From NCBI GenBank assembly GCA_024137785.1, contig JAHRHZ010000085.1:2463456-2524487 (forward strand): DNA of 61,032 nucleotides. Reading direction: 5' to 3'. The notes beneath the pieces were generated by a model that searched no databases, was not told the origin of the DNA, and was given only the letters and a program-made list of their open reading frames with translations. This document shows positions 1 through 52,816 of the stretch, in pieces (positions within the stretch are counted from its first letter, which is position 1; each line of letters starts with the position of its first letter). This DNA is from Ginglymostoma cirratum. Lineage: Eukaryota. A program made the translations under genes and the position numbers.

Positions 1-247
1 TTGACCTGCTGTGTTCATCCAGCCCCACGCTTGTTATCTCGGATTCTCCAGCATCTGCAGTACCTTTTATCTCCCCCTCTCTCCCTATTTATTTCAGAAC
101 CCTCTTCCCCTCCCCCATTTCTGATGAAGGGTTTAGGCCCGAAACATCAAGTTTTCCTGCTCCTATGATGCTGCTTGACCTGCTGTGTTCATCCAGCCCC
201 ATGCTTGTTATCTCGGATTCTCCAGCATCTGCAGTACCTTTTATCTC
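1..247 (+). mobile_element. Penelope-derived pseudo-LTR/SINE-like repeat, partial tandem copies, hammerhead core at 121-148
   Basis: The unit ttgacctgctgtgttcatccagcccc...gtaccttttatctc occurs twice in tandem; near-identical copies at ~7860-8031, ~47090-47227 and, inverted, at 17679, 46697 and 60879. Confidence 0.85.
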
Positions 248-661
248 TGATCCAACTTCCATACAAGCATTGATTAAACAACCTGAATTGCATTCACATA
301 ATTGGGTAATGAAAGCTGAATTGTCTAGTTAAAAGAAATATATGATGTGAAACTGCTTGCAAGCATTTGTGTCACTTCAACACTCACATTACATGTTCAA
401 GTCCATAGCTTTAGTGTGCAAAAGCCTATCTTTTCAGAGCTGAAGGCCGTCCGGTGAATTTGACAGATGAAGTAATATTTCCACAGCTTGAAGACATAAC
501 TAAATATGTGCACTTGTGTTCAACATTTTGAGTTACATCCTAAATCTAACTCGCCTATTAAGCTGTGTTTCTATATGAATTGCATGGTATTTAGTTGGCT
601 AACAGACGCATGCAAACATCACACCTCTCTTGACAATTAATGCCAAATTTATTGTCACCAG

Positions 662-705
662 GTTCAACAGAAAATGTAAGAAATCTCACTCAGCACAAAG
701 ATGAG
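662..705 (+). CDS. Gene A short cytoplasmic exon (xSTENVRNLTQHKDE); upstream V/C1/TM exons lie outside the window
   Basis: Acceptor caccag| at 661 (in-frame alternative aacag| at 670), donor gag|gtaagg at 706; phase 1 to 0 fits the next exon; homologous to 44906-44941 (ctcagcacaaagatgag|gtaagg vs ctcagcgtgaagatgag|gtgagg). Confidence 0.7.
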
Positions 706-4722: not shown

Positions 4723-5049
4723 TTTGAATGTTGAAATTGATAATGTTGAATTAATGCAATCATTTTTTGCTCAGGAAACTGAATTTAGCAGGGTTCCTCT
4801 TCTAAGTTTTAACACACTCAAACATGAAGTTTCATAGTTTATGAGCAGGGTTGCATCAGCAACTGAGGAAGCTTTCATTTATGTCGAGTGGAGAGAAGGG
4901 GACTGGATGAAAAAGCTTTAAGCTATTAAGAATATAACAAAGAGGTAGCAGACTCATGGAGACAAAGTAATTACCATTGATTACTGTGGAAAACTGATTC
5001 CTGGCTCCAGAAAATAGAAATTAATGAATGTTAAACCTTAACTTTCCAG

Positions 5050-5160
5050 AGAAAACAAGAAACAGCTGAAGACAGATTAATTTATGCTCATCTTGAACTG
5101 GTCCATTCAAAGGATGCTAAAATTCCTCAGCCACAGGATGAAAAAACAGTGTATGCAGAG
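5050..5160 (+). CDS. Gene A cytoplasmic exon RKQETAEDRLIYAHLELVHSKDAKIPQPQDEKTVYAE (ITIM LIYAHL plus TVYAE)
   Basis: Acceptor tttccag|, donor gag|gtatct, phase 0-0, 111 nt, open frame; paralogous exon at 47399-47507. Confidence 0.85.
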
Positions 5161-5299
5161 GTATCTCTCTGTTCATATGTCTGAATAAAGTAACCATTTT
5201 CTTAATTACAATCATTTGGTTTTGAGATAACATTGAAGAATTCTAAACTTTTAGTGAAATTTGAAACAATAATGAATTACTTTCACTGTTGTTTTACAG

Positions 5300-5428
5300 A
5301 CCAAACATAGCACGAACAAATGCCAGCTGACTTACGCTGCTCTGAATTTGAATGGTCCCAGGTTAACAATGAAGCCAGAACACACAGCTGCAACTCCATT
5401 GTATGCCGCAGTGAAAGCCAGCAGCTAA
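5300..5428 (+). CDS. Gene A terminal coding exon TKHSTNKCQLTYAALNLNGPRLTMKPEHTAATPLYAAVKASS* (ITIM LTYAAL plus PLYAAV)
   Basis: Acceptor ttttacag|, 129 nt to TAA; same length and aligned motifs as 47650-47778. Confidence 0.85.
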   Translation, partial: TKHSTNKCQLTYAALNLNGPRLTMKPEHTAATPLYAAVKASS

Positions 5429-6054
5429 ATTTAATGATACTCAGACAAAAATCAAGTGATCTTGGTATCATGGGTGTTTTCTATCCTTTTCCGTCTTGTG
5501 CAGTCCTTTTTGTGTTCTTTGATTGGTTTCAAAAAATAGTAGTTGATGTTTTTTCCTTCTTTAATGTCTCATGAACCAACTCTATTTTGCCTTCAAACTT
5601 GCTGTACTGTTTGAGATAGCAGCTGGCTTCATTCTAACTATTAAACTCATCATTCTCTTGCACTTGCCACGATGTTACACGTAATAAGTATCATTGTTTT
5701 CTGATAGCTTTCTGAAAACTCTTATACCACCATTGTTTTCACCATTTCACTATTAGTTACATTGTGAAAATACTGATATTTTGATCCTTTTTTTTCAGTG
5801 TAGGATGGTTCTAACTGTGCCAAATATATATCAGTTTTTCATTGCTTTATTCTTTTTAATTTGTTCATGTTTTATTGCATTTTTTGATTTAAATTGGTTG
5901 TTTGATTCACGATAATTCAAGCAATAGTTCTGTTTTTATTAGTCCTGTGTCATTCCACTTTAACCATGTTCTGTAAAAATATTTATGCCTTTCGTTTTCC
6001 TTTTGTGAAGCCAAATAGGCCCAAGTGATAATTAGCTACAATACTTTGTTTTAA

Positions 6055-6437: not shown

Positions 6438-7675
6438 TTGATTTCATTAATTTGCAATATTTTCTGCTCAAACATGACTCTTCAAGTGCAGATAGCAAAT
6501 AGAAATGCTCAATCCATCCAATGTTTATACCAATGTTTCAACCTTGATAACCCACCTTTTCAACAACATACATTCCTGCAAAACGTCTTCCAGCATCTCA
6601 GAAATATCCGCATTGACAAGTCAAGAGCATTTAATGTTTATAATCTTCATTTTCATTTTGCATTTCTGGAGTCCAGCAGTTACTCCAGTGTCATACTACC
6701 ATCAGACATAATCTGAGGGATGGTCTGTTGATTGTTTCACTGCAAACAAAGCTAATGTCAAGCTTGATATTATTCGGATAAATTGATCAGGTATTTGTTT
6801 CCACTCAAGTTATTCTTTATTCAGTGCTACCCTTTACCTGTTGGATTTACATGTATAATGTTTAGTGTGAGCTTGAGTTACTGGTTTTGTGTTACTATCT
6901 AGCTTCCCCCCACCTACCCTGCAACCGCTGTATCTGATGTTAATAATTAACTTGTAATTATTTTGTTACCAGGCAATTGCTTTTCTAAAACAATTTACAA
7001 AGCACAGCTCTGAAGGGTTTGGATTCTGTGCACTCATGGACTTTTGCTTGTCTAAGATTTCTTGCAAACTACCATGGTTAATAATGGGGTGTCAAACATT
7101 TGTTAGAGAGTTGTGGAAGTTGGTTTGCTTAACACTAAGGGAAATATAACATTTAAGAGAGGGAGTTTTGAATAGTGAAGTCCTGTGAAGTTCTTTGAAA
7201 AGGATGGATGTATTGTGAAATGTTCAGAAGCAGGGACTGATAGATGAAGTGAATGAGATTACCTTGAAGTGTAGAGTTATTATCAGCCCAGAAACAGAAG
7301 TGTTGGGATAACCAAAAAATCTGACTTGCATTAGTTCAGAGAAGCTCAGGTATGTGTTAGCTCCAGGAAGAAGCAATCATTTTTCCAGTCCAAAATTTGT
7401 TTAGTCAATTAGCTTAAACCTATCATCAGAACGTTATTTGAAAGATGTCTTGAGAACTGCACTGGCATTATGTTTTGGATATTACCTAAAAGCTAATTTT
7501 ATCCTTATCAATTTATAGAGGTGTGTTTTGTGATTAATGGATAATACATTTTACTGTGCGCTTATAGACTTTGAATTTGTATGGAAGTTTATAGTTTTGT
7601 TTATTCTATTATATCTTTGCTCATTTGTAATGCATTTGCTTTGTTGATAAAGCAAAACCTGCAGTACAGTGTGCT

Positions 7676-8031
7676 AGATAACAAGCATGGGGCTAGATGA
7701 ACACAGCAGCATCATAGGAGCAGGAAAACTTGACGTTTCGGGCCTAAACCCTTCATCAGAAATGGGGGAGGGGAAGAGGGTGGCTCCCTCCCCGCCTCTT
7801 CAACTTGTCTGCCTCCTCTCCACCTATCCTCTCCTCTATCCATCCTCTATCCACCTCCCCCTCTCTCCCTATTTATTTCAGAACCCTCTTCCCCTCCCCC
7901 ATTTCTGATGAAGGGTTTAGGCCCGAAAGGTCAAGTTTTCCTGCTCCTATGATGCTGCTTGACCTGCTGTGTTCATCCAGCCCCATGCTTGTTATCTCGG
8001 ATTCTCCAGCATCTGCAGTACCTTTTATCTC
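7676..8031. mobile_element. Penelope-derived insertion, inverted partial copy + direct copy, 14 bp TSD
   Basis: cagtacagtgtgct at 7662-7675 and 8032-8045; hammerhead cores at 7732-7759 (-) and 7905-7932 (+). Confidence 0.9.
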
Positions 8032-31386: not shown

Positions 31387-31698
31387 TTGCTGTCTGCACT
31401 TCGGACAACGTTACTCCGGATATTAGGCAAATAAAGACCCTGATAAATACAACAGTCACCCTGCGATGCCCTTTCTCCTTCGAAGTCAACCATTCAAACA
31501 CAAATGTTTTCTGGTTCAGAGAAGGCAGTGAGACGCTTCTAAAGGAAGGCAGCAGAATACTCTTCAATGTAAAGAGAGGGGGAGCCTACCTTCATCTCTT
31601 TAATGTGACTGTTCTGGATGCTGGAACATATTACTGTATCGTCAAAAATCAGCATCAAACGGTCTCTGGGAAACAAGCAACGCAACTTGTTGTTTACG
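31387..31698 (+). CDS. Gene B V-set Ig exon with germline-joined J-like G strand
   Basis: VTLRC, VFWFR, AYLHL, DAGTYYC, SGKQATQLVVY; donor tac g|gttagt, phase 1; no stops. Confidence 0.93.
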
Positions 31699-32396
31699 GT
31701 TAGTGCCACCACAGTAAACGTTAAGTCTTGGTTCCAATGAACAGTGAATGTGAGTTAGCAGTTGCTTTTTCACAAACATATACAATGAGTATATAATCGT
31801 TCACTTTTTCGAAACGACATGTTCGATAGTGTGTTAAAGAACAGCATTACCTGCGACACGACACACTTCAGCAATTGCGCTTTATCAGCAAATGGTATTG
31901 AAATTTGTGTTGTATAGAAAGCTAATGCAAGACTTCCAAATGAAGCACTTTTCACAATTTAAGCATGGTGTAACAGAGTGAATTATCCAGAGGTTATTGA
32001 CAATATTAAGCATTTTAAATGTCACTTTATTTTCAACTTTGAAAAGCCAAGTTCCTATTCCCCTCGTTTGGACGGCGGCCGTCTCGTTTTCTATGATTCA
32101 GTTCCCAAACCGCTGATTGTGAGGAGCGTACATGATGACAACTCAAATATATTTTTATAAATTAATATGCACACAAAATAGTATCCAATTTTGCTGAACA
32201 TACAGGTGATGTATCAATTGCATTAGGAGGTCGCTACGTGATCAAAGTAATAGCAAGCCCTACCAGTATAAATAATGACGATCAATGCAGCTGCCGTACC
32301 CAGAAGTAACAGTGAGTTAGTTCATGAAATAGTTTACGTTTTTTGAGGACAAGTCCAACGTTCACATTTATTTAAATGTTGTTATTTACAAAGCAG

Positions 32397-32702
32397 CTTC
32401 ACCAGCTCCACTAAAAATTGTATTGATACGTTCCGAAGATCCTTCATCTGCTTCTTTCAAGCTGCAATGCAGGACATCTGGCTTTTCTCCGGAAGACTTT
32501 AACCTTACTTGGCGCAGAAACGGTACACAAATCTTCACTGGATTTAGAAATGTACACCAGGCAAAAGGCGAGGGACTTTATGAAGTGGTCAGCTCCTTGG
32601 ACGTGCCAAATATACCAGAAAGTGACACAGTCTACCTGTGTCAAGTATATCATGTTTCGAGCTCATTTCCAGTAAATGCCAGCTGCACTCTTACGAAAGA
32701 AG
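32397..32702 (+). CDS. Gene B C1-set Ig exon
   Basis: LQCRTSGFSPEDFNLTWRRNG...GLYEVVSSL...YLCQVYH (C1 signatures); acceptor aaagcag|, donor gaa g|gtaaga, phase 1-1. Confidence 0.93.
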
Positions 32703-33037
32703 GTAAGATTCTATGACACGTTGTACGTTAATCTTTCAGACACCGTTTGAAAAGATTCACGAAGTAGAAAGTGATTACTACAGTCAATTACCTATGATTA
32801 TGTCAATCCTACAATTTGACGCTGTTGTATGGTTAAAGATTTCCTTTCTTCAGCTTATTCTGAAGGTGTTTAGCATGTTGTCATGTGAGGTACTGCCAAA
32901 AGTGAATATTCGTCATTGAGAGGTCCCATAATTTTAATTAAATACACAATGTTACAATTGATTTCCGAACGTACATTCAATGTTAAATTCCATAACTGGA
33001 TCCGTTAAAGAGTGACAAAGAGATCGAGAGGAAAATA

Positions 33038-35772
33038 TGCGGATTGGCCATGCTAACATTGCCTGTAGTGTTCAGGGATGTGTAGATTAGATGGATTATG
33101 GGAGTTATGTACGGACCTCCTAACAGTGGTCAGGACCAGGGGTGCAAGATGCACCGGGAAATAGATAGGGCATGTCAGAAAGGCAAGGTCACGGTGATCA
33201 TGGGGGACTTCAATATGCAGGTGGACTGGGTGAATAATATTGCCGGTGGATCCAAAGAAAGGGAATTCATGGAATGCCTCCAGGATGGCTTTTTGGAACA
33301 GCTTGTGATGGAGCCCACAAGGGAGCAGGCTATTCTGGACTTAGTGCTATGTAATGAGCCAGACTTTATAAAAGATCTTAAAGTAAGGGAACACTTAGGA
33401 GGCAGCGATCATAATATGGTAGAGTTCAGTCTGTGGTTTGAAAGAGAGAAGACAAAATTGGATGTAATGGTGGTACAATTAAATAAAGGTAATTACAGGG
33501 GCATGAGAGAGGAACTGACGAAAATCGTCAGTTGGAAGCAGAGCCTAGCAGGGAAGACAGTAGAGCAACAATGGCAGGAGTTTCTGGGTGCAATTGAGGA
33601 CACAATACAGAGATTCATCCCAAAGAAAAGAAAGATTACCCGGGGGAGGATTAGACAGCCATGGCTGACAAAGGAAGTCAAGAAATGTATCAAAGAAAAA
33701 GAGACAGCCTAAATAGTGGCCAAGAGCACTGGAAAATCAGAAGATTGGGAAGGGTACAAGAACAAACAGAGGATAACAAAGAGAGAAATAAGGAAGGAGA
33801 GGACCGAATATGAAGGTAGGCTAGCCAGTAATATTAGAAATGATAGTAAAAGTTTCTTTCAATACATAAGAAACAAACGAGAGGCAAAAGTAAACACTGG
33901 CTGCTCCAAATTGATGCTGGAAAGCTAGTGATGGGAGATAAGGAAATAGCTGAAGACCTTAAGAAGTATTTTGCGTCAGTCTTCACAGTGGAAGACATGA
34001 GTAATATCCCAACAATTAAGGATAGTCAGGGGGCAGAGTTGAGTATGGTAGGCTTTACAAAAGAGAAGGTGCTAGAAAAGCTAAAAGGTCTAAAAATTGA
34101 TAAATCTCCTGGCCCCGATGGGCTACATCCTAGAGTTCTGAGGGAGGTGGCTGAGGAAATAACGGAGGCTATTGTGATCTTTCACAAGTCACTGGAGTCA
34201 GGGGAAGTCCCAGATGATTGGAAAATCGCTGTTGTAACCCTCTTGTTTAAGAAAGGATCAAGACAAAAAATGGAAAATTATAGGCCGATTCGCCTAACCT
34301 CGGTTGTTGGTAAAATTCTAGAATCTATCGTTAAGGATGAGATTTCTAAATTCTTGGAAGTGCAGGGTCAGATTAGAACAAGTCAGCATAGATTTAGTAA
34401 GGGGAAGCCGTGTCTGACAAACCTGTTAGAATTCTTTGAAGAGGTAACAAGTAGGTTAGACCAGGGGAACCCAGTAGATGTTATCTATCTAGACTTCCAA
34501 AAGGCCTTTGATCAGGTGCTTCACGGGAGGCTGCTGAGGAAGGTGAGGGCCCATGGTGTTTGAGGTGAGTTACTGGCATGGATCGAGGATTGGCTATCTG
34601 ACAGAAGGCAGAGAGTTGGGATAAAAGGCTCTTTTTCAGAATGGCAACTGGTGACAAGTGGTGTCCCGCAGGGTTCAGTGTTGGGGCTGCAGCTGTTCAC
34701 TTTATACATTAATGATCTGGATGAAGGGACTGGGGGCATTCTGGCAAAGTTTGCCGATGATACGAAGTTGGGTGGACAGGCAGGTAGTACGGAGGAGGTG
34801 GGGAGGCTGCAGAACGATTTAGACAGTTTAGGAGAGTGGTCCAGGAAATGGCTGATGAAATTCAAAGTGAGCAAATGTGAGGTCTTGCACTTTGGAAAAA
34901 AGAATACAGGAATGGGCTATTTTCTGAACGGTGAGAAAATTCATAAAGCCGAAGTACAAAGGGATCTGGGAGTGCTAGTACAGGATTCTCTAAAGGTTAA
35001 CTTGCAGGTTGAGTCCGTGATTAAGAAAGCAAATGGAATGTTGTCATTTATCTCAAGAGGGTTGGAATATAAAAGCAGCAATGTGCTTCTGAGACTTTAT
35101 AAAGCTCTCGTTAGGCCCCATTTAGAATACTGTGTCCAATTTTGGGGCCCACACCTTAGGAAGGACATACTGGCACTGGAGCATGTCCAGCGGAGATTCA
35201 CACGGATGATCCCTGGAATAGTAGGCCTAACATAGGATGAACGGCTGAGGATCCTGGGATTGTATTCATTCGAGTTTAGAAGGTTGAGGGGAGATCTAAT
35301 AGAAACTTACAAGATAATGCATGGCTTAGAAAGGGTGGACGCTGGGAAGTTGTTTCCGTTAGGTGGGGATACTGGGACCCGTGGGCACAGCCTTAGAATT
35401 CGAGGGGGTCAATTTAGAACGGAAATGAGGAGACATTTCTTCAGCCAGAGAGTGGTGGGCCTGTGGACTTCATTGCCACGGAGCGCAATGGAGGCCAGGA
35501 CGTTGAATGTCTTCAAGGCAGAGATTGATAAATTCTTGATCTCGCAAGGAATCAAGGGCTCCAGGGAGAGTGCAGGTAAGTGGAGTTGAAATGCCCATCA
35601 GCCATGATTAAATGGCGGAGTGGACTCGATGGGCCGAATGGTCTTACGTCCACTCCTATGTCTTATGGTCTTCTGGTCTTATTATAGGGGGATGGGTCTG
35701 GATGGGATGCTGTAAGGTTGGTGTGGACTTGTTGGGCCGAAGGGCCTGTTTCCACACTGTAGGGATTCTATG
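33038..35772 (+). mobile_element. HE1 SINE 3' part split by a CR1 insertion (33038-33097 and ~35681-35772)
   Basis: attggccatgctaacattgcc...gattagatggattat resumes as attataggggg...ccacactgtagggattcta after the LINE. Confidence 0.75.
33098..35680 (+). mobile_element. 5'-truncated CR1 LINE ORF2 (end of APE, full RT) with few disablements
   Basis: MGDFN, ILDLVL, SDHN (APE); YLDFQKAFD, GVPQGSVLG, KFADDTKL (RT); a few stops and frameshifts; (tcttatgg)n-like tail. Confidence 0.97.
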
Positions 35773-35999
35773 CTTCTAAAATCAGTTAATAAACGTGGAG
35801 CTGGAAAAACACAGCGGGTCAGAGAGCATCCGAGGAGCACGAAAGTCAATGTTTCAGGCCGAAATGTTGACTTTCCTGCTCCTGCAATGCTGTCGGACCT
35901 GCTGTGCTTTTCGACCTCCACACTTATTGATTCTAGCTTCCAGCCTCTGCCGTCCTTACCGTCAGCGAGCGGAATATCATCAGGTTATACAGCACAGAA

Positions 36000-36440
36000 A
36001 AAGCCCTTTGGTCCATTGGGTGCAGCACACCTATTTACACTAATCACACTTTCCAGCACTTCGCCCAAAGCCTTGAAAGTTATGACATTTTAATTGCTCG
36101 TCCACGTACATTTCTTAAAGCTTTCCCTCCTGCACTACCCTCCCAAGCAGTGCATTTTTGTTGCCCAATACACTCTCGGTGGAAAAATAAATTCTCCATG
36201 TTGCTCTAAACCTCTTGACTTTACCCCTACAAATTATGACTACACGTTACTTACCCTTCAATTAAAGGGAGCAGTTGCTTTACGTCCACCCTGTCCCTGC
36301 CTTCATAACCGTATACACCTCGATCAGGGCTCCCCTCAAACTTCTCTGCTCCAAACAAAACAGTGTGTCCTTCTCCAGAAACTTCACAGCTAAAATGTTC
36401 AAAACCAGGCAGCATCCTGGTGAATCTCCTTTACACCCTC
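36000..36440 (-). mobile_element. Old CR1 3' fragment
   Basis: Decayed reverse-strand CR1 3' end. Confidence 0.6.
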
Positions 36441-38770
36441 CCCAGTGCAATCAAATCTGGGAGGCCTAAAGTATCGAACAGATTATTTTAAGGTCTGATT
36501 GAAATGATTACAAGAAGACTAGTGAACTCATTATATAGCTCATTTATTCGGTTAATACTTCATACGTATATAAATTAAGGGTTGACATTTTACATTATGG
36601 ACAGATATTAAAATGAAATGGTTAATTTAAACTATTCAGATATATGTTTAAAAGCGATTCTCATACTGCCTTTCGGACTCGGCGGGGACTTTGGCGATGG
36701 CGGCACTTGGAGCTCTATCTCAGATTCCACGGCGTCCGTCTCACGAACTCCAGGCCAACGGGGAAAGTCTAATGACTGGGGCAAATTCCCCGATATTATT
36801 ACTGTTTTGAATCTACTGTTACATGCTACAGCACCATTTCATAGAACTTACAATATTTTTCCCGGTATAGCACTGTGCAGAAAAAAAACTGAAAAAATCT
36901 TCCGGATGGCTCCTTTTTAACCGCACGTTATTCTGTTTCCCACCCAGCCAAGGTCACACAGTTACCTCCCAGACAAAGAAGGCCGTTTTTACACTAAACA
37001 TGTCATTTTCCACTTGCCTTCAATTGCTGATTTCCATGTCCAAATACCCTTTCATGATTAACCCTGAATGGTATGGTTTGGAGATGTCTTTTTAAAGCCC
37101 ACACTACACACCTACAAAATAGATTATCAAAACCTTATGCAAGCACGTACATGCTGCTCAATAGCTGCAAGTTCTTTATACATGCGATATAGTTCACAGG
37201 CCATTACACGGTTATGTAAAAACGAGAAATAAACAATTAACAATAATATAAACAATAGGATACCATAACAGTGAGAGTACTGCTGAAGCGTTCGGTGACC
37301 ACCTGTTAAATATAACCCACTAATGATGCATAGTTAGGGCTCCGAAATTGCCTGCTTTGTGAATCAATTGATCGTGGCTGTAAGTCATGGCAATTTCTTG
37401 CTGTAAGAAGCATGGTGTACTGTTGCCAAATGAGAACTAATGTGCTGATGCTTGGCAAGGAAAGCCTGCAATTTCTTAAATATCACATGAAGAGGTGCTA
37501 TTAGCAAACTGCCAAACCTTGTCGCTCAAAAATCAATTTGCCAATTCTCAATGGGCTAATGGTTTGGCCCACACAGTAAGTAGTTTAATACCTTTCTTAT
37601 GTACTTGCCCAGCTTTATCAATTCTATTTTATTCAGTCTCAATACCCATGGAAGTTAATACACCTTTTCCCGCCTCTGATCAACCTAGAATAGTGACGAG
37701 TACGTTTCTCCTGCCTCTCCTCTGTAATGTTGACCGTGTGTACATCGAGCGGCAATGGGAAGATTATTTATTTCCATTAGTTATCTCCATTGTCCTCGTT
37801 AAAATGATATTCGGTTTGGGGCGCAGGTATCATACCAAAGCTGAAGATGGGGTGACTGTATGGCATTTAATGGGGCTGAATTCATAGCCCATCGTAATAA
37901 GCCACAAGATGGTTTACGCCCCATTATCTCTCTAGCTTTTTGACACAGCAGCGAATCACCCCGCATATGAGCCACTGCCAGGCAACATCTCCCTTTGGCG
38001 CTGTGTCCCAAACTCCCAGTAAGAAACCAGTTCAGTGGTGAGGTGTAATTATGTTAAGTGAGGGACATGCCTTCTTCAATAACCTAGCATCGCCACAAAG
38101 TTTGGGCCATTTCTTTAGCAGTGCCAGAGTGGGCCTGCACCTCACTCATTTTATTTCTCACATTGTTTGGAATCATACGCTCTGCCTAGCCCGTTGTATG
38201 CTCAGCAAAACAACACGCTGGCTTGGTCCCTGGATTTTCTGAGGATTAATTTCCCAGTATTTATTTCCGTAGGTGCTGAGTCAAAGTAGCCGTGTCCTCG
38301 GCTGTTGCTTCCTCTGAAGAGCCACGTAGCAATATATCATCAATATAAAGCGCTGTTATATCGCTGGAGAGAGGGAACATCTCCAGATCTTAGCTATTAA
38401 ACCGTGGCAGAGAGTTGGGTTGTGCATGTAGCCCCCGCAATTTACAAACTGAGAGTTCTCCGCCCTCCCGTGTGAAAGCAAATTCCTCATCAAGGAAATG
38501 AAAGTATTAGGTCGGTAGATTCCAGCAAACCATTCAACAGTTCCCAATGACAGTTGCTCCGGTAATGTTACAATGTCTGGGAGAGCCAATGCTAACGCTG
38601 GGGCGTGTTGGTTTAACCGTCAGCTATTGACAGTCATTCTCCAGTTACCACCTGGTTTCTGTATTGACCACACAAGGCGGTTATACAGGAAGACAGCAGG
38701 TCATAGAATCCTTCTTGTCACTGACCCTTCAGTAGTGTCTCTGATCTCCTTGTGCCCTCAATACTGCTTA

Positions 38771-39625
38771 CATAGAACATGAGAACATAAGACCTAGGAG
38801 CAGAAGTAGGCCATCTGGCCGCTCGAGCCTTCCCCGCCATTTAATAAGATCATGGTTGATCTTTTTGAGACTCAGCTCCACTTACCCGCCTACTCACCAT
38901 AACCTTTAATTCCTTTACTGTTCAAAAAATTTATCTAGCCTTGCCTTGAAAACATTCAGCGAAGTAGCTTCAACCACTTCACTGAGCAGGGAGTTCCACA
39001 GATTCACAACCTTTTGGGTGAAGAGGTTCCTCCTGACCTCAGTCCTACATCTGCTTCCCTTTATTTTGAGGCGATGCCCTCTAGTCCGAGCTTCACCTGT
39101 TAGTGGAAACAGCCTCCCTGCCCCCACCTTATCTATTCCCTTCATAATCTTATATGTTTCTTTAAAATCTCCCCTCATTCTTCTGAATTCCAGTGAGTAT
39201 AATCCTAACCCACTCAGTCTTTCCTCATAATCCAACCCTCTCAACTCTGGAATCGACCGAGTGAATCCCCTCTGCAACCCCTCCAGTGCTAGTATATCTC
39301 TTCTCAAGTAAGGAGACCAAAACTGCGCACAGTACTCCAGGTGTGGCCTCATCAGGACTCTATACAGCTGCAGCATAACCTCCCTATTTTTAAACTCCAT
39401 CCCTCTAGCAATGGCGGACAAAACTCCATTTGCCTTTTTAATGACCTGCTGCACCTGCAATCCTACTGTTAGCGATTCATGCACAAGGACACCGAAGTCC
39501 CTCTGCACAGCAGAGTGCTGCTATTTTTTATCATTTAAAACGTAGTCCATTTTCCTGTTATTCCTACCAAAATGGATGACCTCACACTTATCAACATTGT
39601 ATTCCATCTGCCAGACCTTTGCCCA
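38771..39625 (-). mobile_element. CR1 3' fragment inserted into the ERV pro-pol region
   Basis: 197 aa ORF with RPHLEYCAQFWSPYLRRDILALEG. Confidence 0.93.
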
Positions 39626-40318
39626 GTAACAATTGCCGTTAAAAATTCGTGAAGGAATGGCATGTATTGGGGTTCCCACTCAGCTTTCCCAACGACCATA
39701 TTCATACCTCATGCATCAAAAAAAGACTTTCCTACTGGGGTTCATATTTCCATCCCCCTCACAACATCCATCCCTAAAATATCTTCATTTATGCTGCATA
39801 TTAACACAGATACCATCCGCGGTGATCTATTCCCAAATGCCAACCGCACCAGTGCCGACAACCGCCGGTTTTTCCCGTCTCTTAAATCTATTGATAGTCA
39901 TTTTAGTTCCCACATGTCTGGGTCAAATCAAGCAAGACCACAATATGCTGTTTATCTCCATTTTTCCGATGAACTGTGTTATGGATGTATGGCCTCTGGA
40001 CGTCTGAGTTGACTCCCCTTTTAGTCACAGCTCAGTGTCCCTGCCACCTTCCCAGTCTAGGGGATTTTTCACGCTCCACATCTGCTCCAGTTCCTCCAAC
40101 GTGGGGTCCAGAAGGAAATCTGATTTTTTTTTGGGAAGGGCCATCTAAATCAGAATTGGTGTCTCACACCATGGGAGGGGTCGATTACCCGTTGGCCTCT
40201 TACCGGATTACAAATCTTCCAGAGGGAACATAGATCACTGGTGATGATACCATGCATTTTCAGTCTATATCAGACCTGTCTGTGCCTGTCTTCCATACAG
40301 CAGTAAACATCTCATTTT

Positions 40319-40490
40319 ATAGACAAAGGGAACTGCAGGTGCTGGAGAATCTGAGATAACAAGGTGCAGAGCTGGATGAATACAGCAGGCCATTTCTGAA
40401 GCATTTTCTGAAGGGTCGACTCCCGAAACGTCAGCTTTCCTGCGCCTCTGATGCTGCTTTGTTAATCCAGCACGACACCTTGGTATCGCA
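40319..40490. mobile_element. Penelope-derived fold-back repeat inside the ERV
   Basis: gggaactgcaggtgctggagaatc arm plus ctgaagggtcgactcccgaaacgtc arm. Confidence 0.7.
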
Positions 40491-40864
40491 GGAAGGCTGA
40501 CGGGTTATCCAAGCTCCCAGTGCCCTGCTTTCTGACCGAATATTTTTCCCAGATCCTGCAATTCTGTCAGTGGGTAATCCCGGACAACGCGAGCATGCTG
40601 TGGGGAGCCTGCTGGCCGTGGCCCTTAGATGTATTAGTTACTAACGGGCGCGCTAAGGGCCACATTATCACCATTAGAGAGTCCTTCCCCATCGGTCCCC
40701 TCGTACTTCAAATCGGACGAATATCACTCCCAGCGATAGGAGACCAGCTGAAGTTAATAAAAAGGGCACTTCAGCTGGATTCACTTTCCAGTTTGTTTTT
40801 TTTTCCGGCTCGCCCGCTTTTTGCGCTGCAATGTGGCCAATTTGCAGGTTATACAGTTTGACTG

Positions 40865-41140
40865 TCTGTTCTTACCAGTCCGGCAGTTAGACACACCATT
40901 GCCCTGCCCTTCTCACATTCCGATCACTTAATCTGCTCTGTCAACATCCTTTCTCCCTCAGCATTCCCACTCCCCAACCAACGTCCATTGTATAAATGGT
41001 GCCCCCTCCAGACTTCGCCAGCTCTGAGGAAGTGTCGTCTCGCCCCGAAACGTGAGCTTGCTCTCTCTCCATGGAAGCTGCCTGACCCTCTGTGATTCCC
41101 AGTACTTTTTGTTTTTGTTGCAGGCTGCGCTAGTCTGCTT
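40865..41140 (+). mobile_element. Penelope-derived repeat inside the ERV
   Basis: ctctgaggaagtgtcgtctcgccccgaaacgtgagcttgctctctctccatgg; related to the outer element at 46572-47310. Confidence 0.6.
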
Positions 41141-42664
41141 CTACTCGGCTTTATCTGCTCTTTCCTGAGTGGTCCAAGCCGCCCTCGCCAGCGCAGCGGT
41201 CAACGTCCCATTCGCCTACTTTAAATCTCGCACTTCCCGGGGCAGTATACGGGAGTCCGCTCAGCAGGATCCACCCATGTGGGTGACGCCGTTGGTTTGC
41301 TTTGGGAAACCTACTTCCCGCAGACAGCCTTTCATGGCGCCAAGTAATCCCTTGGGATTCTGCTCCTAATCCCTTTCCCAAAACTAAGTGGTCCTGCCAC
41401 AGACAACCGGTCACTAACACACGGAACCAATTATTCCAGGACCATGCCGGGACACAGAATGCTTCCACAGCCAAAGTAGCCTTCATTTTCGTCAACGTTT
41501 TGCTCAGACCCTGCACGTAGCACCAAATGGTTCGGCTGAAAGTACCCAACTGGCTCTTTAAATTCTGGTCACAATGATTACTAGTGTACTTCAGTATGTA
41601 TAACTTTTTGGGTTAAAACGCTTTACATATCTGAATTACAAGTCTGAGTTTACACTACACAGATATATTGAAGCTAACCGGTGACGTTAACTAACTGAGA
41701 TATGTATTAAACATGTAAGTTTCACACCACCTTTCCGCTCCCCGGGGACTTTGGCGATGGCGGGACTTGGAGCTGTATCTCCAATTCCACGGCACCCGTC
41801 TCACGCCCAATAGTGAAAGTAGAAATGAGTGGGGCACAGTCCCAGATATTAAAACTGCTCTGAATAAAATGTTACACGCTGTTTCACGATTCGCTCGTAT
41901 TTTCAGTGCTTTCCCACGAATTCCACTGTGTAAAAACAGGTTAAAAACACTTTCAAATTCGTTCCTTTTTAACTGCATAATATTGTGTTTCCGTCCAAGC
42001 CAAGAGACGCTGTTTTGCAGTAACTTTGTCATTTTCCACTTGTCTTCACTTGCACATTGTCATGTCCAACTACCCAGAACGAATCACTCGAATGTTCTGT
42101 TTTGGAGACATCTTTAACCCCAACACTACACCTGAATGTCGCGCCGCAACCAGAACTACACACAGTACTCCCCTGTGAGCAAACTAAAGGCCCATTGTAA
42201 AACTCCAGTGTAATCTCTCTCCTTTTATAATCTACCCCACTCCAGATGAAAGCATATGCCCTGCATGTTTCTTAACCATCCTATTAACTTGCCCTGCCAC
42301 CTTCAGTGATCTGTAAACAAGAAGTCCAAGATCTGCCTGCTCCTCTGAAATTCCTGGTGTCTTGCCGTTCATTGGGCAGTCCCTTGTGTTGTTATTTCTT
42401 CTAAAGTTCATTGATTATCTTCTAATACATTCAGAAACCAACATAGCCCAAGGTGAATGTCCCCATTAATCATAATAGAAACACAGTTTGGTCGATTTTT
42501 TTTGTATTCATTGAATGTGGTATTTTCTGAGAGGACACTTATTGTCTGTACCTCATTGCCAAGAGAGCAGTTAACAACGATCCAATTTGCAGTTAGTCGC
42601 ATGCAGGACAGTTAACAATGGTAGAATAACTTCCAAAAGGACATTAAGTTAACTACGTGGTGTT

Positions 42665-43805
42665 AGAGTCATAGAGATGAACAGCATGGAAACAGACCTT
42701 CATTCCACCTTATCCATGCCTACCAGATATCCTCAATTAAGCTATTCCATTTACCAACATTTGGTCCATATCCCTCCAAACCCCTTCCGATTCATACATC
42801 CATTCAGATGCCTTTTAAATGTTGTAATCGTACCAGCCTCTACCATTTCCTCTGGAAGTTCATTCCAGACACAGAACACCCCGTAGATCACTTTTAAATT
42901 GTATGCCTGTCACCTTACACCTATGCCCTCTAGTTTTGGAATCCCCTACCCAGGGGAAAAAATTGATTATTCACCCTATCCATGGCCTATGATTTTATAA
43001 ACCTGCATATTTTATAAACCTATATAAAGTCACCTCTCAGCCTCTGACACTCCAGAGAAAATAAGTCTAGACTATTCAGTGTCGCCCAATTGCTCAAACT
43101 CTCCAACTACAGCAACATCCTTGTAAATCTTTTCTGAACCCTTTCAAGTTTAACAACATCTTTCCTACAGTAAGGAGATCAGTGTTTTTAAGACAAACAC
43201 TGTTACAGGTTTTTGTTGAATTCAAATTTCACCATCTAGTTCTAGTTGCTCGACTATAGAAAGGATATTATTAAACGAAATGGAGTGCAGACAAGATTTC
43301 CTAGGATATTATCTGGACTTGAAAATTAAGGAGAAGCTGGATCGGATGGGACTTTTTTTCTCTGGACCGTAGAGACTGAAGGGTGACCTTATAAAGGTCT
43401 GTAAAATCATGAGAGGCAGATTTGAGCAGATAGCCAACAGCTTTTCCCCATGGTAGGGGAGTCTAAGACTAGAGGGAACAGGATTAAAGTAAGACGACAG
43501 AGATACAAAAGAGTCCAGAGGAGCAATTTTTCACAAAGAGGGTGGTGAGTGTCTGGAACAGTCTGCCAGAGATGATGGTGGGGGCGAGTACAATTTTGTC
43601 ATTTAAGAAACATTTGCCCAGGTGCATGGATAGGTTGGGTCGAACATTGAACATAGAAAATTACAACGCAGTACAGCCCCTTCGGGGGTTTGGAGGGATA
43701 TGGACCAAATGTAGGCAAATGGGACAAGAGTAATTGTGAAAACTGGGCGGCATGGACAAGAACGGCGAAGGGCGTGTTTCCGTGCTGTCAACCTCTATAA
43801 CTCTA
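42665..43805. mobile_element. Two CR1 3' fragments (minus 42665-43180, plus 43245-43805)
   Basis: CR1 3' UTR and ORF2-end motifs on both strands (RVVSVWNSLPEM). Confidence 0.75.
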
Positions 43806-44364
43806 TGATATAGATCCACACATACAGTAGCTCCCGTTTATTTCCCCAATTCGTCAGAATGCCACATACTTGATTCAATATGAAACACAGAGTCAGAGCT
43901 GATTGGGTTGTAGCTGCAGAGAGATTCAAATTATTTCAACTGAAGTTTGCCTCCACAGAAAACTCAAGCAAATCTGACGGCAGGTTCCATTATATACTTT
44001 TTCAGACAACAATCTGTCTGCAATTCAATTAAATTCCCAACAAACAATTTAGTATTTTGCCACATAGCTGAGAGAACTGAATGCTTCGTGCAATTAGCAC
44101 TATTTCCGCATTAATTTTAAATGTGCTATTAGTTGAGGTACTTTTGTCATTTACCCATTTCTCTAAGTTCCAGACATTTTGCTTCTGGCTGCAAACGGAT
44201 CAGTTGAACAATGAGACAAGAGAATTGAAATGCTGTGACTTTATGGACTATATTTATCACATGTGTAAGGCAGTACAATTGAAAATGACAGACGTGACAT
44301 TTAAACCTGTGCATTTTCAGTTTCTGTTGCAATTCCTAATTTTGAATTTATATTAACATTACAG

Positions 44365-44478
44365 ATTTTGCCTTTGAAATCAGTGTTCCTATGGCTGCCG
44401 GTTGCGCGGCTCGTGCACTTGCAATTCTGATATTGACCTTGATGATTGCCAAGGGTTTTCTGTTCTTTATCTCCAAAG
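44365..44478 (+). CDS. Gene B transmembrane exon DFAFEISVPMAAGCAARALAILILTLMIAKGFLFFISK
   Basis: Acceptor attacag|, donor aaa g|gtatga, 114 nt, phase 1-1, compatible with the C1 exon; hydrophobic stretch containing Arg and Lys. Confidence 0.82.
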
Positions 44479-44905
44479 GTATGAACAGGATAGAAATGTC
44501 TATCTGAAATTAACTTAATTGCGAGCTGAATTTCTGAACTGGACAATTTAAATAAATATTTTATGTGAAACCTCTTTCAAATCTTGACATTGCTTCTCAT
44601 CAAATATAAAACAAAAAGATTTGAAGTTTCGCTTTGTGAACTATATCAGTGTAGGTCAAAATTGTATTGCTGAAATTCATTGGTGTCAGAAGTTTCTGTA
44701 GCTTCAATCATGAAAACATAAATTCAAAGCATCTGCGTGTAACATGTAGAGCTGTATTGCAAAACTGTGTTTCCTATTGTACCCTGTTTACAAATATTGA
44801 ATAGCAGTCAAATTGCTTTTGGTTTCTTTGGTTTGCCGATGAGTGCAAATATCAGCCTTTTTTGTTGCTGACTAATAACATTTTTATTTCTCTAATGGGG
44901 GAAAG

Positions 44906-44941
44906 AAAACATCAATAAATTGAACTCAGCGTGAAGATGAG
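44906..44941 (+). pseudogene. Gene B short cytoplasmic exon, damaged (+1 nt, weak acceptor); reads ENINKLNSA*
   Basis: Homologous to 671-705 but 36 vs 35 nt; stops in all three frames; donor gag|gtgagg retained. Confidence 0.7.
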
Positions 44942-46571
44942 GTGAGGCAAATTTCCTTCATTCTATTTATTTTAATTTTCAAGGCTAATTGAACAATTTA
45001 AGCTGGGAACACAAATATATATTTCTAACATGTCAAGGTGAGTCTTGAACATTTCATCAGCTCTCAAAAACACAACATCAGCTGAATGAAAACACAATAA
45101 AGAAAATCGAAAGTGGTAGGAAGTTTCATGAACTGTTCCAACTGTTTAAATCATCAAACATAGTTGTGAAATAGCTTTGATTTTTGTTTTCATTCGCATT
45201 TACCAAGTGACAGTGCGCTGAATAATTTTGCCATGTTGATTACAGACATGAAAATCAAAGTTGATTCCATTAGGCTGATGACTGTTTTGAATGGTAGGTT
45301 TCCAGGTGCAAATAGAGATGATTATTCCCTCCTTCTTTTCTGCACTGTTTAAATTCACTCAGCATTAGTCTGAGTTCAGTGATTATGTCTGACTTCTACT
45401 GAGGAACAGTTTGCACAAGTTGGCTTCCTGAGAAAGCTTTTACTGTTGGCTGTCTCTCTGCTAGTGCAGCGTGCTGCAGCACCATGCAATCTTGGAAAAC
45501 AAACAGACGAGCTGTTGTGCTGCAAACTTCTCTGATTTTTAATTTTCGACATGTAGATATCAGTGATATATGAGAGGCACATCCCTATCTGTGGCACCTG
45601 AAAAGGAGCGGGTGGCGCTTATCCAGGAATAACTGATAATAGTTTGGAAAAACTTGAAGTCTTTAGTTGGCTACTACAGAGGGCACAATGCTATTACACA
45701 TATTTTATGCTTGACTACAGTTGAATACAGCGCAGGCCAGCAGTTTTGATCTGTTTAAATGCGTTTTAAAGCAGTTGAAGCCTTTCTATCAATTGAACTG
45801 CTTTATTATCTCAGTTTCAGTCTTGGACCTGAATTTGATCTTTTTTTTAAAAAAATCATTCTCCTTCCTTGAGTATAATACAACAAAAAGTACCCTCATC
45901 TTTCATTGCATCCGGTGCCTGCAACTCCCTCCCTGACAACAATGTTGGAGTGCAGTCAGTCAAGAAAGCTGGTGTGTTGCTGGACTCTAAATAGTAAATG
46001 ATTATTGGCATCAAATACTGGTCTTGCCACTGAGGCTCACATACTATTAAAAATAGTACTTCGGGCAGAATAGACCCACTCACTGCAGGCGCAGCAAAAA
46101 TTAAATTCCTTTCCTGGGGGTCTTCAGAAAATTACTTCAAACTCTTTACTCCATCACTGCACGTCTTTCTGTGAAATGTTGCAGCTGATACTGTTGTAGG
46201 TCACAGAATAAAGTTCTCTGATGGCCAGGTGCGATGCTTTGCCTGTGTTTTAATGTTTTATGAGCAATGGATCAGATGGAAAGATGGAACAAAATTATCT
46301 ATGATTGAGAAATGCTTCACAGAAGACCAAAGAGTCCATTTCAGAACACTGAAATATTGTGGCTTGCGTTTTCGACCAAAGTCACATTTTTACATTGTCA
46401 CTCACCAGACCATATTCCTCCCCAAATAGTTGACATATTTTCTGACTTAAAACATCAATAATTTACTTTAAACATCCTGTCTGGCATCACCCATACCTTG
46501 CAACTCCTTTGACAGTGTGCTGTACCTTTGTCTTCACTTCACACTTTAACACCTTTATTTATTACTGTTTT

Positions 46572-47310
46572 GATGCTGGAATCTGTGCTGAAACAACAAA
46601 TGCTGGAGATCACAGGGGGTCAGACTGCATCCATGGAGAGAGAGCAAGCTAGCAGAGCTGTGATGAAGAGTCATCTAGTCTGGAAACATTGTATCGGAGA
46701 TAAAAGGTACTGCAGATGCTGGAGAATCCGAGATAACAAGCATGGGGGCTGGATGAACACAGCAGGTCAAGCAGCATCATAGGAGCAGGAAAACTTGACG
46801 TTTCGGGCCTAAACCCTTCATCAGAAATGGGGGAGGGGAAGAGTGTTCTGAAATAAATAGGGAGAGAGGGGGAGGTGGATAGAGGATGGATAGAGGAGAG
46901 GATAGGTGGAGAGGAGGCAGCCTATCGACTAACATCATCCCGCCCCCTTGACCTGTCCGTCCTCCCTAGACTGACCTATCTCCTCCCTACCCCCCTACCT
47001 ACACTCACCTTTAATGGCTCCATCCCCGCCTCTTCGACTTGTCTGCCTCCTCTCCACCTATCCTCTCCTCTATCCATCCTCTATCCGCCTCCCCCTCTCT
47101 CCCTATTTATTTCAGAACCCTCTTCCCCTCCCCCATTTCTGATGAAGGGTTTAGGCCCGAAACATCAAGTTTTCCTGCTCCTATGATGCTGCTTGACCTG
47201 CTGTGTTCATCCAGCCCCATGCTTGTTGTCTGGAAACATTACCTTGCTCTCTGTCTCCATGGGAGTTGTGTGACCCGCTTTCATCTCCAGCATTTGTTGT
47301 TTTCAGTACA
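46572..47310. mobile_element. Older Penelope-derived fold-back repeat with a younger one nested at 46691-47227 (13 bp TSD)
   Basis: gtctggaaacatt at 46678-46690 and 47228-47240; hammerhead cores at 46797-46824 (-) and 47139-47166 (+). Confidence 0.88.
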
Positions 47311-47398
47311 ACAAATAATTGTTCATGTTAAGAACATACACTTGTCTCTTTACTCCAAAAACAAAATAACCAAATGATATTAAATCTTGGCTTTCGAG

Positions 47399-47507
47399 AG
47401 AAAAGGTCAGTTGCCTGACGATAAGCTGCAATATGCTGCTCTTGATCAAGTTGGTTCTGAGCCTGGCATAATGTCAAAACAACAGAAAGAAATCACAATC
47501 TATAGAG
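47399..47507 (+). pseudogene. Gene B ITIM exon, damaged: RKGQLPDDKLQYAALDQVGSEPGIMSKQQKEITIY then frameshift
   Basis: Aligns to 5050-5160; acceptor tttcgag instead of tttccag; 109 vs 111 nt (tat-a-gag vs tat-gca-gag). Confidence 0.8.
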
Positions 47508-47649
47508 GTATATTTAAGGTCATATAAGTATATAATAAGTTCATTCATTATAATCAGTTGATCTTGAGATGGCATTTAACCATCTTTGTGTAATTTTCAT
47601 CGAGAATGATTTAAATGAATGGTAATTCAGTGTCAATGTTGTTTTTCAG

Positions 47650-47778
47650 ACAAAAAACTGCATGACAGACACCAGGCCGACTTCCCTTGCTCTGAAATTC
47701 AATGATTCTAGGACATCATCAAAACCCAAATGCCAAGAAAATAGTCCAGTTTATGCAGCGGTAAAAAGCAGCCACTGA
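47650..47778 (+). pseudogene. Gene B terminal exon TKNCMTDTRPTSLALKFNDSRTSSKPKCQENSPVYAAVKSSH* (ITIM Tyr lost; now out of frame)
   Basis: Acceptor ttttcag|; same length as 5300-5428; LTYAAL corresponds to PTSLAL, PLYAAV to PVYAAV. Confidence 0.8.
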
Positions 47779-51081: not shown

Positions 51082-51478
51082 CTTCTTTCGCAATAGTGTA
51101 ACTGACATTTGCTGGAAATGAGCTTGAAATGTGATGCACTAGACAAGTGTAAACTGTGTCACATTCGACTGCCTCTGACACCTCTAAGGTGCTGACAACC
51201 TCGAAGTCTGTTGGTGTTTCCTTGTTTTTCATTTCTAACTGCAGTCAAGACTTTTCTGAAGAAAGGTCTCGGCCCAAAACATCAGCTTTCCTGCTCCTCT
51301 GATGCTGCTTGGCCTGCTGTGTTCATCCAGCTCCACACCTTGTTATCCAAGGATTTTGTATTCTTTTTGTGTGAAGTAAAATAAATGTCTTTTGGGTAAA
51401 ATGCAGAAGTCCTGCGCTGCAGAATGAAAGAAATGTCTTCTCAATGTACTGGCACAATTTTCAGGGCAGTTGGTGAAT
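51082..51478 (-). pseudogene. Locus C C1 exon (paralog of 32397-32702), disrupted
   Basis: DSPTALKIVPVH*EDISFILQRRTSAFYPKDIYFT...[insert]...FEVVSTLEVSEAVECDTVYTCLVHHISSSFPANVSYTIAKE; stop, first Cys to Arg, frameshift, repeat insertion. Confidence 0.9.
51251..51347 (+). mobile_element. Penelope-derived short repeat inserted in the locus C C1 exon
   Basis: ctgaagaaaggtctcggcccaaaacatcagctttcctgctcc...; flanked by caaga / caagga. Confidence 0.85.
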
Positions 51479-52122
51479 CTGCATTGTCAATAACACAATT
51501 GTTTGAAATCTAAAGATCAGAATCCTACTCCAAAGCTTCAACGATTTCATGAAGAAACTATCTGTAAATTTGTGGCATGGTTCCTACATTAGAATTCATT
51601 ACATGCTTGGAGAAAATATTACACTTAACATATTGCGAGCCCCTGCACCCCCAAAGCAATTGATGCACCATTTCCAAATTCATAAAAAATTGGTTTCCAA
51701 CAATTTACATAATAATTAATACAAAAAAAAGGGATCTCGTTCTGCATCCTTCTCATAACAATCGGTTTGGTACTAGATTCCAGATCATAGAAACTGCAAC
51801 AGCCACAGTCCAAATGATCGGGACAGGAATTTCATTTTCAACTAGATACCGGATATTCAAAATGTACAATTCTGCAGGTAATATCTGTATCTTTTCAACT
51901 GTTTCCTGATGCTTAAATGAGGAAAGAAAAATGGGTGGCTTCACAGTTTAACTTATTCTGCAATAGATGCATTTCAGCACAATTTTCTAATGAAGTGCAG
52001 ATGGTAATCTTTATACTGTGGCGTTTTCTACGAGTTTCTCACACTGTTGATAATTTCATTTGAAAGAATTTGAATGTTTATATCAAATGTAGCTAAGACA
52101 CCATGTCTGTCTGTGGTCACAC

Positions 52123-52436
52123 CATCTCCAGTAAATTGCACAGCAGTTTCTTTCCCAACCGTTTGATGCTAATACTTGACGACACGGTAATATGTTCCAG
52201 CATCTCGGACAGCCACATTCAGAAGTTTAAGGTAGGGCTGCTCCTCTAACTACAGTGAATAACTTTCTGCTATCCTCCCTGCTGAAAGTTATTATTACCT
52301 TCTTTCCACCAGTCAGCTGCAACATTCGAATGGTCAATTTCAAAGGAGAAAGGACATAGCATGAGAATTGTTGAACATCTCTGCGCGGCTATACGTCGAA
52401 GATCCGGTTTCACTTCGGCTGAAATGCCCACAGCAG
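52123..52436 (-). pseudogene. Locus C V exon (paralog of 31387-31698), disrupted
   Basis: AVGISAEVKPDLRRI...CPFSFEIDHSNVAADWWKEG..(+1)EDSRKLFTVVRGAA(+1)YLKLLNVAVRDAGTYYRVVKY*HQTVGKETAVQF; expected acceptor AG reads CG. Confidence 0.92.
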
Positions 52437-52816
52437 CGATAGGAAACACACTGAGATTAAACAAGAAGGACGGTGTGTCCAAATAACATCCTTGTTTCAG
52501 GTCATTGATGCAACAGCAATTTAGCATGCCTAATTGACTAATTTTTAAACTATTGTCCTCATTGAACGTCATTTTTACTTCCCTGTAACAAAGTGGCAAA
52601 TGAGCTCTTTGAATACTTAACATGCAAAAAAACCCCACGAAAGTAATAAAATTGCGTCTGAATGGTTTTCCAATCAAGCTTTAAATTTTTGTTGCATCTT
52701 GATTATGGACAGTTAATATGTCGTTCAAAAAATGTGTACCTGCACACACAATGCCTCGCGTCCGGATGTCCTGTTGTGAGTAATGCATCGACAGATCGAC
52801 AGTGAAAATCTGAGAC

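Follow-up and report, generated by a model that had tools for sequence, protein, structure and literature searches.

Two short exons near the start of the window, by which we mean the whole 61,032-nucleotide stretch of Ginglymostoma cirratum DNA analysed here (from contig C85), encode a spliced tail with four tyrosines arranged as two doublets. By analogy with known receptors, we consider it probable (roughly 80%) that these exons form the 3' end of an immunoglobulin superfamily (IgSF) receptor gene whose duplicated ITIM plus second-tyrosine tail is likely inhibitory and predicted to recruit SHP-1/SHP-2. They appear to end a V-C1-transmembrane (TM) receptor gene that is one of at least 17 copies in a cluster; its own V, C1 and uncharged TM exons are deduced from paralogues, because the DNA upstream of the window reads N. 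The parts of the gene that lie in the window are the following:

662..705, + strand: juxtamembrane mini-exon before the tail exons (44 nt, phase 1/0, CCAG/GTAAGG)
5050..5160, + strand: tail exon 1 (111 nt, 37 codons, phase 0/0, acceptor CCAG, donor GT), the first ITIM plus second-Tyr module
5077..5094, + strand: ITIM 1, LIYAHL (Tyr codon 5083-5085, Ala at +1)
5146..5160, + strand: second Tyr motif, TVYAE, completed after splicing by Thr (non-canonical)
5161..5299, + strand: intron (139 nt, GT..AG)
5300..5428, + strand: coding part of tail exon 2 (42 codons plus TAA, acceptor ACAG), the second module
5327..5344, + strand: ITIM 2, LTYAAL (Tyr codon 5333-5335, Ala at +1)
5396..5413, + strand: terminal Tyr motif, PLYAAV (hydrophobic +3, Pro at -2)
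5429..6040, + strand: 3'UTR, reaching at least 6040 with continuous coverage in run X1

The initial annotation had read four tyrosine hexamers in two short exons with the same spacing between tyrosines. All four hexamers lie where it had placed them, in frame on the plus strand; both exons have an open frame and canonical splice sites, and a public run shows them joined; and the tyrosines occupy codons 12 and 35 of each exon, 23 residues apart, which gives a spacing of 23/14/23 along the tail. Its description of an ITIM/second-Tyr doublet occurring twice stands as a pattern, with two qualifications. All four tyrosines are followed by Ala at +1, but only two of the four motifs, the first of each exon, are canonical ITIMs ([ILVS]xYxx[LVI]): the second spliced motif, YAET, lacks a hydrophobic residue at +3, and the last motif carries Pro at -2. 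The spliced tail contains no canonical ITSM (TxYxx[VI]); one arises only if intron 5161-5299 is read through, which yields TVYAEV (Val) and then a stop eight codons on, and this read-through form has no coverage in X1. For a chance control we took the open phase-0 segments of 90-150 nt between YAG and GT on both strands of the window (n=675), among which an ITIM occurred in 18 and an ITIM with a Tyr 21-25 residues further on in 4, three of them from this gene and one from a neighbouring paralogue. Pfam matched neither tail exon, as expected for a disordered tail. The mini-exon at 662-705 is also found in 12 paralogues and corresponds to residues 282-300 of the zebra shark model P0017.

Transcript evidence came from four public runs (X1-X4) aligned to positions 4800-6040 of the window. 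In X1, whose library type is not on record, contigs cover both tail exons and the 3'UTR only, with zero depth in the bins inside the 139-nt intron, and two contigs skip that intron at a GT..AG joint, the 5160/5300 junction that had been predicted. Contig edges on tail exon 1 fall at 5048/5052 (start) and 5158/5160 (end). Because one intron-skipping contig has zero mismatches over 5052-5158, a stretch in which each of 11 other open copies departs from this gene at 7 or more places, we attribute it to this gene or an allele of it. X1 contigs at 5848-5973 and 5955-6040 are likewise free of mismatches, and the paralogues differ at 6 or more bases over 5848-5973. The other predicted junction, 705/5050, is present in a paralogue's contig, but the loose end of that contig at the start of tail exon 1 has 0 mismatches to the paralogue's mini-exon and 4 to the one in this window, so that a joint of this type is established for the family and deduced for this copy. 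From the polyA run X2, about a quarter of which was covered, a single read was recovered at 90-95% likeness. X3 yielded no reads, an outcome that carries no weight either way, and X4 gave two paralogue-like contigs, one of which extends into the upstream intron.

Placed side by side without gaps, tail exons 1 and 2 share 51 of 111 bases and 10 of 37 residues; the base match was reached by 0 of 2000 codon shuffles and the protein score by 60 of 5000 residue shuffles. Together with the tyrosines at codons 12 and 35 of both exons, the base match indicates that the two exons are the products of an old exon duplication, as had been suspected from their appearance, and a horn shark relative carries four such modules. 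The donor GT of tail exon 1 stands at the codon that reads GTG (Val) in tail exon 2. On the simplest reading of the sequences, a terminal exon ending in a TxYAxV-type motif would have been duplicated and the Val codon of the upstream copy would have become a splice donor, which would account for the internal second Tyr reading YAET or YAQT, with no hydrophobic +3 residue, throughout the family. The duplication probably predates the split of chimaeras, sharks and rays, since a Tyr spacing of 22-23/13-14/23 recurs in all three groups.

The tail exons match 17 places including this one, all on C85 at 2.17-3.67 Mb in a genome of 4.36 Gb, and three more tail loci lie in cluster DNA beyond those 17 matches. 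A V exon query gave 71 matches, only on C84 and C85, and a C1 exon query 91, all but 5 of them on the same two contigs. Genes of the cluster follow the plan leader-V-C1-TM-mini-exon-tail 1-tail 2, with V encoded whole in one exon; a C1-set domain in a non-rearranging receptor, a trait of the SIRP family, is found in paralogues of this gene. A paralogue about 80 kb downstream on the opposite strand (C85:2.55-2.565 Mb) carries both tail exons and the mini-exon, preceded by an uncharged TM, by C1 and V exons that are open, and by a leader match; its tail is 91-98% identical to that of this gene; Pfam finds ig/V-set and C1-set in it, and C1-set scores above cut-off in two paralogues (E 5e-12 and 9e-10). 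N runs of many sizes occur throughout the cluster DNA examined, and the N stretch upstream of the window could reflect a gap in the assembly. At window positions 1-250 and 7670-8000 a SINE-like repeat occurs in tandem; the first of these tracts lies where the post-TM intron of the paralogues begins. More distant V-C1 genes of the same family are located on C84 (6.74-7.48 Mb and 6-86 kb) and on C85 (9.6-9.9 and 1.76-2.12 Mb). Rfam found nothing in the window or in three flank pieces.

As in paired-receptor families, genes with an uncharged TM and a four-Tyr tail stand beside genes with Arg or His in the TM and damaged tails, and both types occur in other species. One of the latter lies in the window at 31387-47778 on the plus strand, with an open V exon (31387-31698) and C1 exon (about 32396-32703), a TM exon with Arg (about 44365-44479), a mini-exon with a damaged acceptor and a stop, a shifted tail 1, and a tail 2 that has lost its first Tyr; its sequence makes it a candidate activating member. 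Models from zebra, epaulette and horn shark also have Arg at this position of the TM. Another member, at window positions 51083-52455 on the minus strand, is disrupted in its V and C1 exons by stops, frameshifts and an insertion.

Protein searches extended the V-C1-TM plan to sawfish, rays, skate, several sharks and chimaera. The closest relative is the full-length zebra shark model P0017, whose tail is joined in the same way and matches this one at 64 of 93 residues. We counted modules with a simple pattern in the 80 returned proteins that have at most 1000 residues and a TM call, a set that includes non-family proteins and a few false matches: 47 showed no module, 15 showed one and 16 showed two, and four modules were seen in 2, both of them isoforms of one horn shark gene. 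Full-length relatives have a V and a single C1 domain, and short-tailed members with Arg at the outer TM end are common among them. Some relatives retain a GxGTxLxV strand; in the subfamily of this gene the J-like motif has decayed. Four models (P0014, P0018, P0026 and P0027) have doubled or missing Ig domains (V-V-C1, or V only with a full tail), which could result from fused annotations or from alternative splicing, as with short SIRP-alpha. The AlphaFold model of the relative P0006 (pLDDT 60) brought up antibody chains alone in Foldseek and VIA-align (Z about 13, rmsd about 12), matches that fit a V-C1 fold and do not rank SIRP against other families. The chondrichthyan models (P0001-P0025, P0035-P0088) carry automatic names such as 'SHPS-1-like', 'SIRP-beta-1-like' and 'NCR3LG1-like', which disagree within the family; the names come from pipelines, and the models share family and architecture with this gene.

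To the right of the cluster we found an OSGIN-family exon, exons of an SLC38-type transporter, and HYDIN, where the three exons tested align in order with mouse Hydin near residues 4500, 3907 and 3294:

L076:5925-6959, + strand: OSGIN-family exon beside the cluster
L134, L138, L146 (C85 4.24-4.35 Mb), - strand: HYDIN exons, by match to mouse Hydin

HYDIN is a firm marker for the neighbourhood. Mammals have two OSGIN genes. Here there are three copies, the other two, on C149 and C75, showing 48-49% identity to the cluster-side copy; since MLYCD lies on C223 and the further OSGIN copies lie elsewhere, the name OSGIN1 cannot be assigned to the cluster-side gene. An ABM family search for NECAB found nothing. 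The left flank (L091-L107, C85 1.58-1.75 Mb) is almost wholly repeated DNA, with no Pfam match and, in three pieces, no Rfam match; in the right flank, the scan past 3.98 Mb took in 290 of the 478 candidate frames. MHC class I genes lie on contigs other than that of the cluster. Mammalian SIRP genes have NSFL1C, SNPH and PDYN as neighbours. Their counterparts here are found on other contigs: SEP-domain genes on C87 and C52, syntaphilin on C77 and C138, and opioid on C269, with none on C85. As the contigs are pieces of chromosomes, a linkage over a longer distance is conceivable.

The initial annotation had likened the tail to that of SIRP-alpha, and the parallel holds: rodent SIRP-alpha carries the four hexamers quoted for the human protein (ITYADL, TEYASI, LTYADL and SEYASV), spaced 24/17/24 as against 23/14/23 here, and the alpha-type arrangement of four tyrosines in two ITIM/second-Tyr doublets is found in this gene. 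We use 'SIRP-alpha-like' for this likeness of tail and of likely function as predicted from sequence; orthology is a separate claim. It is quite plausible, at somewhat short of an even chance, that the likeness is convergent, a V-C1 family no closer to SIRP than to B7-H6-like proteins or PRARP having built a four-Tyr tail by its own exon duplication. Genes of the family carry anywhere from one to four modules, which argues that the duplication recurs, and ITIM plus Tyr doublets about 23-25 residues apart are common (25 in PD-1 and BTLA, according to the available part of PMC8631942). The best-scoring named bony-vertebrate hits of the profile search are also mostly multi-Ig B7-H6-like proteins. 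Convergence sits less easily with a chimaera tail that resembles SIRP-alpha outside the motifs too, and with an alignment to SIRP-alpha that is colinear through the TM-proximal region and the tail. A convergent origin would leave the inhibitory mechanism unchanged.

Alternatively, and more tentatively, the cluster could be the cartilaginous-fish sister (ohnologue) of the SIRP locus, in which case a V-C1 brake receptor equipped with the double Tyr-doublet tail would predate the end of the vertebrate genome doublings. Human HYDIN lies on 16q and SIRP on 20p13. Room for this reading is left by the paralogy of chromosome 16 and 20 regions at the Fox clusters, described in the available portion of PMC1634998. 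Sharks, rays and chimaeras would have expanded the HYDIN-side copy (human 16q-type region) into a large family of paired receptors whose tail modules are interchangeable, and bony vertebrates would have retained the chromosome-20 copy as SIRP. A SIRP-type self checkpoint would then be as old as the jawed vertebrates and no tetrapod invention.

Direct orthology to SIRP-alpha, which would imply CD47 binding, gain of a second C1 domain in tetrapods and relocation of the locus, seems unlikely to us. The chimaera model P0025 does align with rodent SIRP-alpha through C1, TM and tail with the four tyrosines in register (E 3e-12), and its tail, the best of four tested against SIRP-alpha, beats motif-preserving linker shuffles (7/3000), but the tail of this window (312/3000) and two zebra shark tails (876 and 1213 of 3000) do not. 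SIRP-alpha is the best non-chondrichthyan row among 26 in the protein search, and with the Atlas language-model features of P0017, SHPS-1/SIRP-alpha clusters take the top two ranks (0.95). In PDB sequence searches SIRP-alpha and SIRP-gamma come near the top amid titin and antibody chains, repeated domains inflating the scores. Against orthology, the C1 tree (35 of 51 rows found, those below 30 bits having been dropped) gives a chondrichthyan clade at 98/98 with no resolved sister. SIRP-alpha V gave no score with the family V profile, and in the genome it gave five weak matches, none to a cluster exon. The V tree (26 of 32 rows found) contains no SIRP row, and a stricter first look with whole SIRP-alpha, which matched nothing in the genome, is uninformative. 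Also against orthology, paralogues and relatives carry one C1 domain, where the SIRP plan, as given in the available text of PMC12975943, is one V and two C1-set domains. The neighbours, too, are an OSGIN gene, an SLC38-type gene and HYDIN, with the SEP-domain and syntaphilin genes elsewhere.

Many cluster copies are broken. Among open copies, which include one with a frameshift near the end of tail 1 that was scored open, module 1 retains its first Tyr in all 12 and its second in 8 of 12; in module 2 the figures are 12 of 14 and 11 of 14. Pooled dN/dS is 0.53 for tail 1 and 1.17 for tail 2, values that mix live and dead copies, pseudogenes included, and from which we draw no claim about selection. 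The upstream check for V, C1 and TM exons that had been suggested gave a mixed result: the adjoining DNA reads N, and a V-C1 pair does lie further upstream on the plus strand (C85:2.355-2.357 Mb, L019:1640-3081), but it is broken, V having a frameshift and a SINE-like insertion and C1 lacking both cysteines, and its sequence is closest to paralogues of the Arg/His-TM type, so it probably belongs to another gene. That our gene is a transcribed pseudogene, its tail spliced and its outer exons broken, perhaps being this very pair, is suggested by the frequency of broken copies, the position and strand of the pair and the tail-2 dN/dS near 1, but is quite improbable, as the pair is 83% identical to two Arg/His-type paralogues and 78-80% to genes with tails like this one, the 4.9 kb downstream of it match no paralogue compared, and the tail retains all four tyrosines and all splice sites.

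If the gene is an inhibitory IgSF receptor, as we favour, ligand binding by its V domain would lead Src-family kinases to phosphorylate the tail tyrosines, as in known ITIM receptors; for SIRP-alpha, ligand binding, Src-family phosphorylation and phosphatase recruitment are described in the available portion of PMC12975943. PD-1 and BTLA, with tyrosines 25 residues apart, bind SHP-1/SHP-2 through both SH2 domains, and Ala at ITIM +1 favours SHP-1 in PD-1/BTLA swaps (PMC8631942, available text). Given Ala at +1 of all four tyrosines in this tail and a distance of 23 residues within each pair, one phosphatase is predicted per module, both of its SH2 domains being engaged with the ITIM leading, and SHP-1 would be favoured. 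Paralogues with a TM Arg and a broken or short tail would serve as activating partners in a paired-receptor family. The tail may also illustrate how duplication of a single phase-0 exon can adjust the strength of signalling.

In the literature searched, with most subscription papers outside its reach, we found no description of this family, nor is it treated in the available portions of PMC12227049, PMC10751288, PMC11599192 and PMC12324903. What was already known is its presence as automatic 'SHPS-1-like' and similar models, for which we found no functional description; new here are a spliced member whose tail is intact, the derivation of that tail from an exon module present in one to four copies, and the linkage to HYDIN. 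Paired receptors of the KIR/LILR/SIRP type have no well-described cartilaginous-fish counterpart in the same literature, and the family is a direct candidate for that place because of its size, its rapid turnover and its combination of brake-type with activating-type members. A 2026 survey places the origin of SIRP in Tetrapoda (PMC13262535, available part). A chimaera tail that aligns Tyr for Tyr with SIRP-alpha calls that dating into question and opens the origin of the 'don't eat me' checkpoint to testing.

Among known systems, SIRP-alpha (SHPS-1, CD172a; rodent P0028; PDB 2wng) shares with this family a non-rearranging ectodomain of V and C1-set type, an uncharged TM (here from paralogues) and four tyrosines in two doublets with Ala at +1. 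It differs in that each doublet here has an exon of its own and a gene may hold one to four modules, that the internal second Tyr of the spliced tail has Thr at +3, and that the locus lies beside HYDIN. The SIRP family also has activating partners (PMC12975943, available text). In the activating-type members here an Arg sits towards the outer end of the TM; SIRP-beta instead has a charged TM residue that pairs with DAP12. That residue in SIRP-beta is Lys. B7-H6 (NCR3LG1)-like proteins share the V-C1-TM plan and are among the nearer bony-vertebrate hits, but these hits have intracellular Ig domains where this gene has a Tyr-doublet tail of about 95 residues, and their C1 domains are not part of the chondrichthyan C1 clade; the turtle protein P0159, automatically named SHPS-1, groups with these Ig-tailed proteins, and its name is therefore probably wrong. 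PRARP, NKp30, UrIg and NITR (VJ-C1 or non-rearranging) share the germline-joined V exon. The protein searches brought up no sequence named PRARP. PRARP is a VJ-C1 receptor with an ITIM/ITSM tail and its own synteny, and NITR has a second domain of I-type, in contrast to the C1-set second domain of this family.
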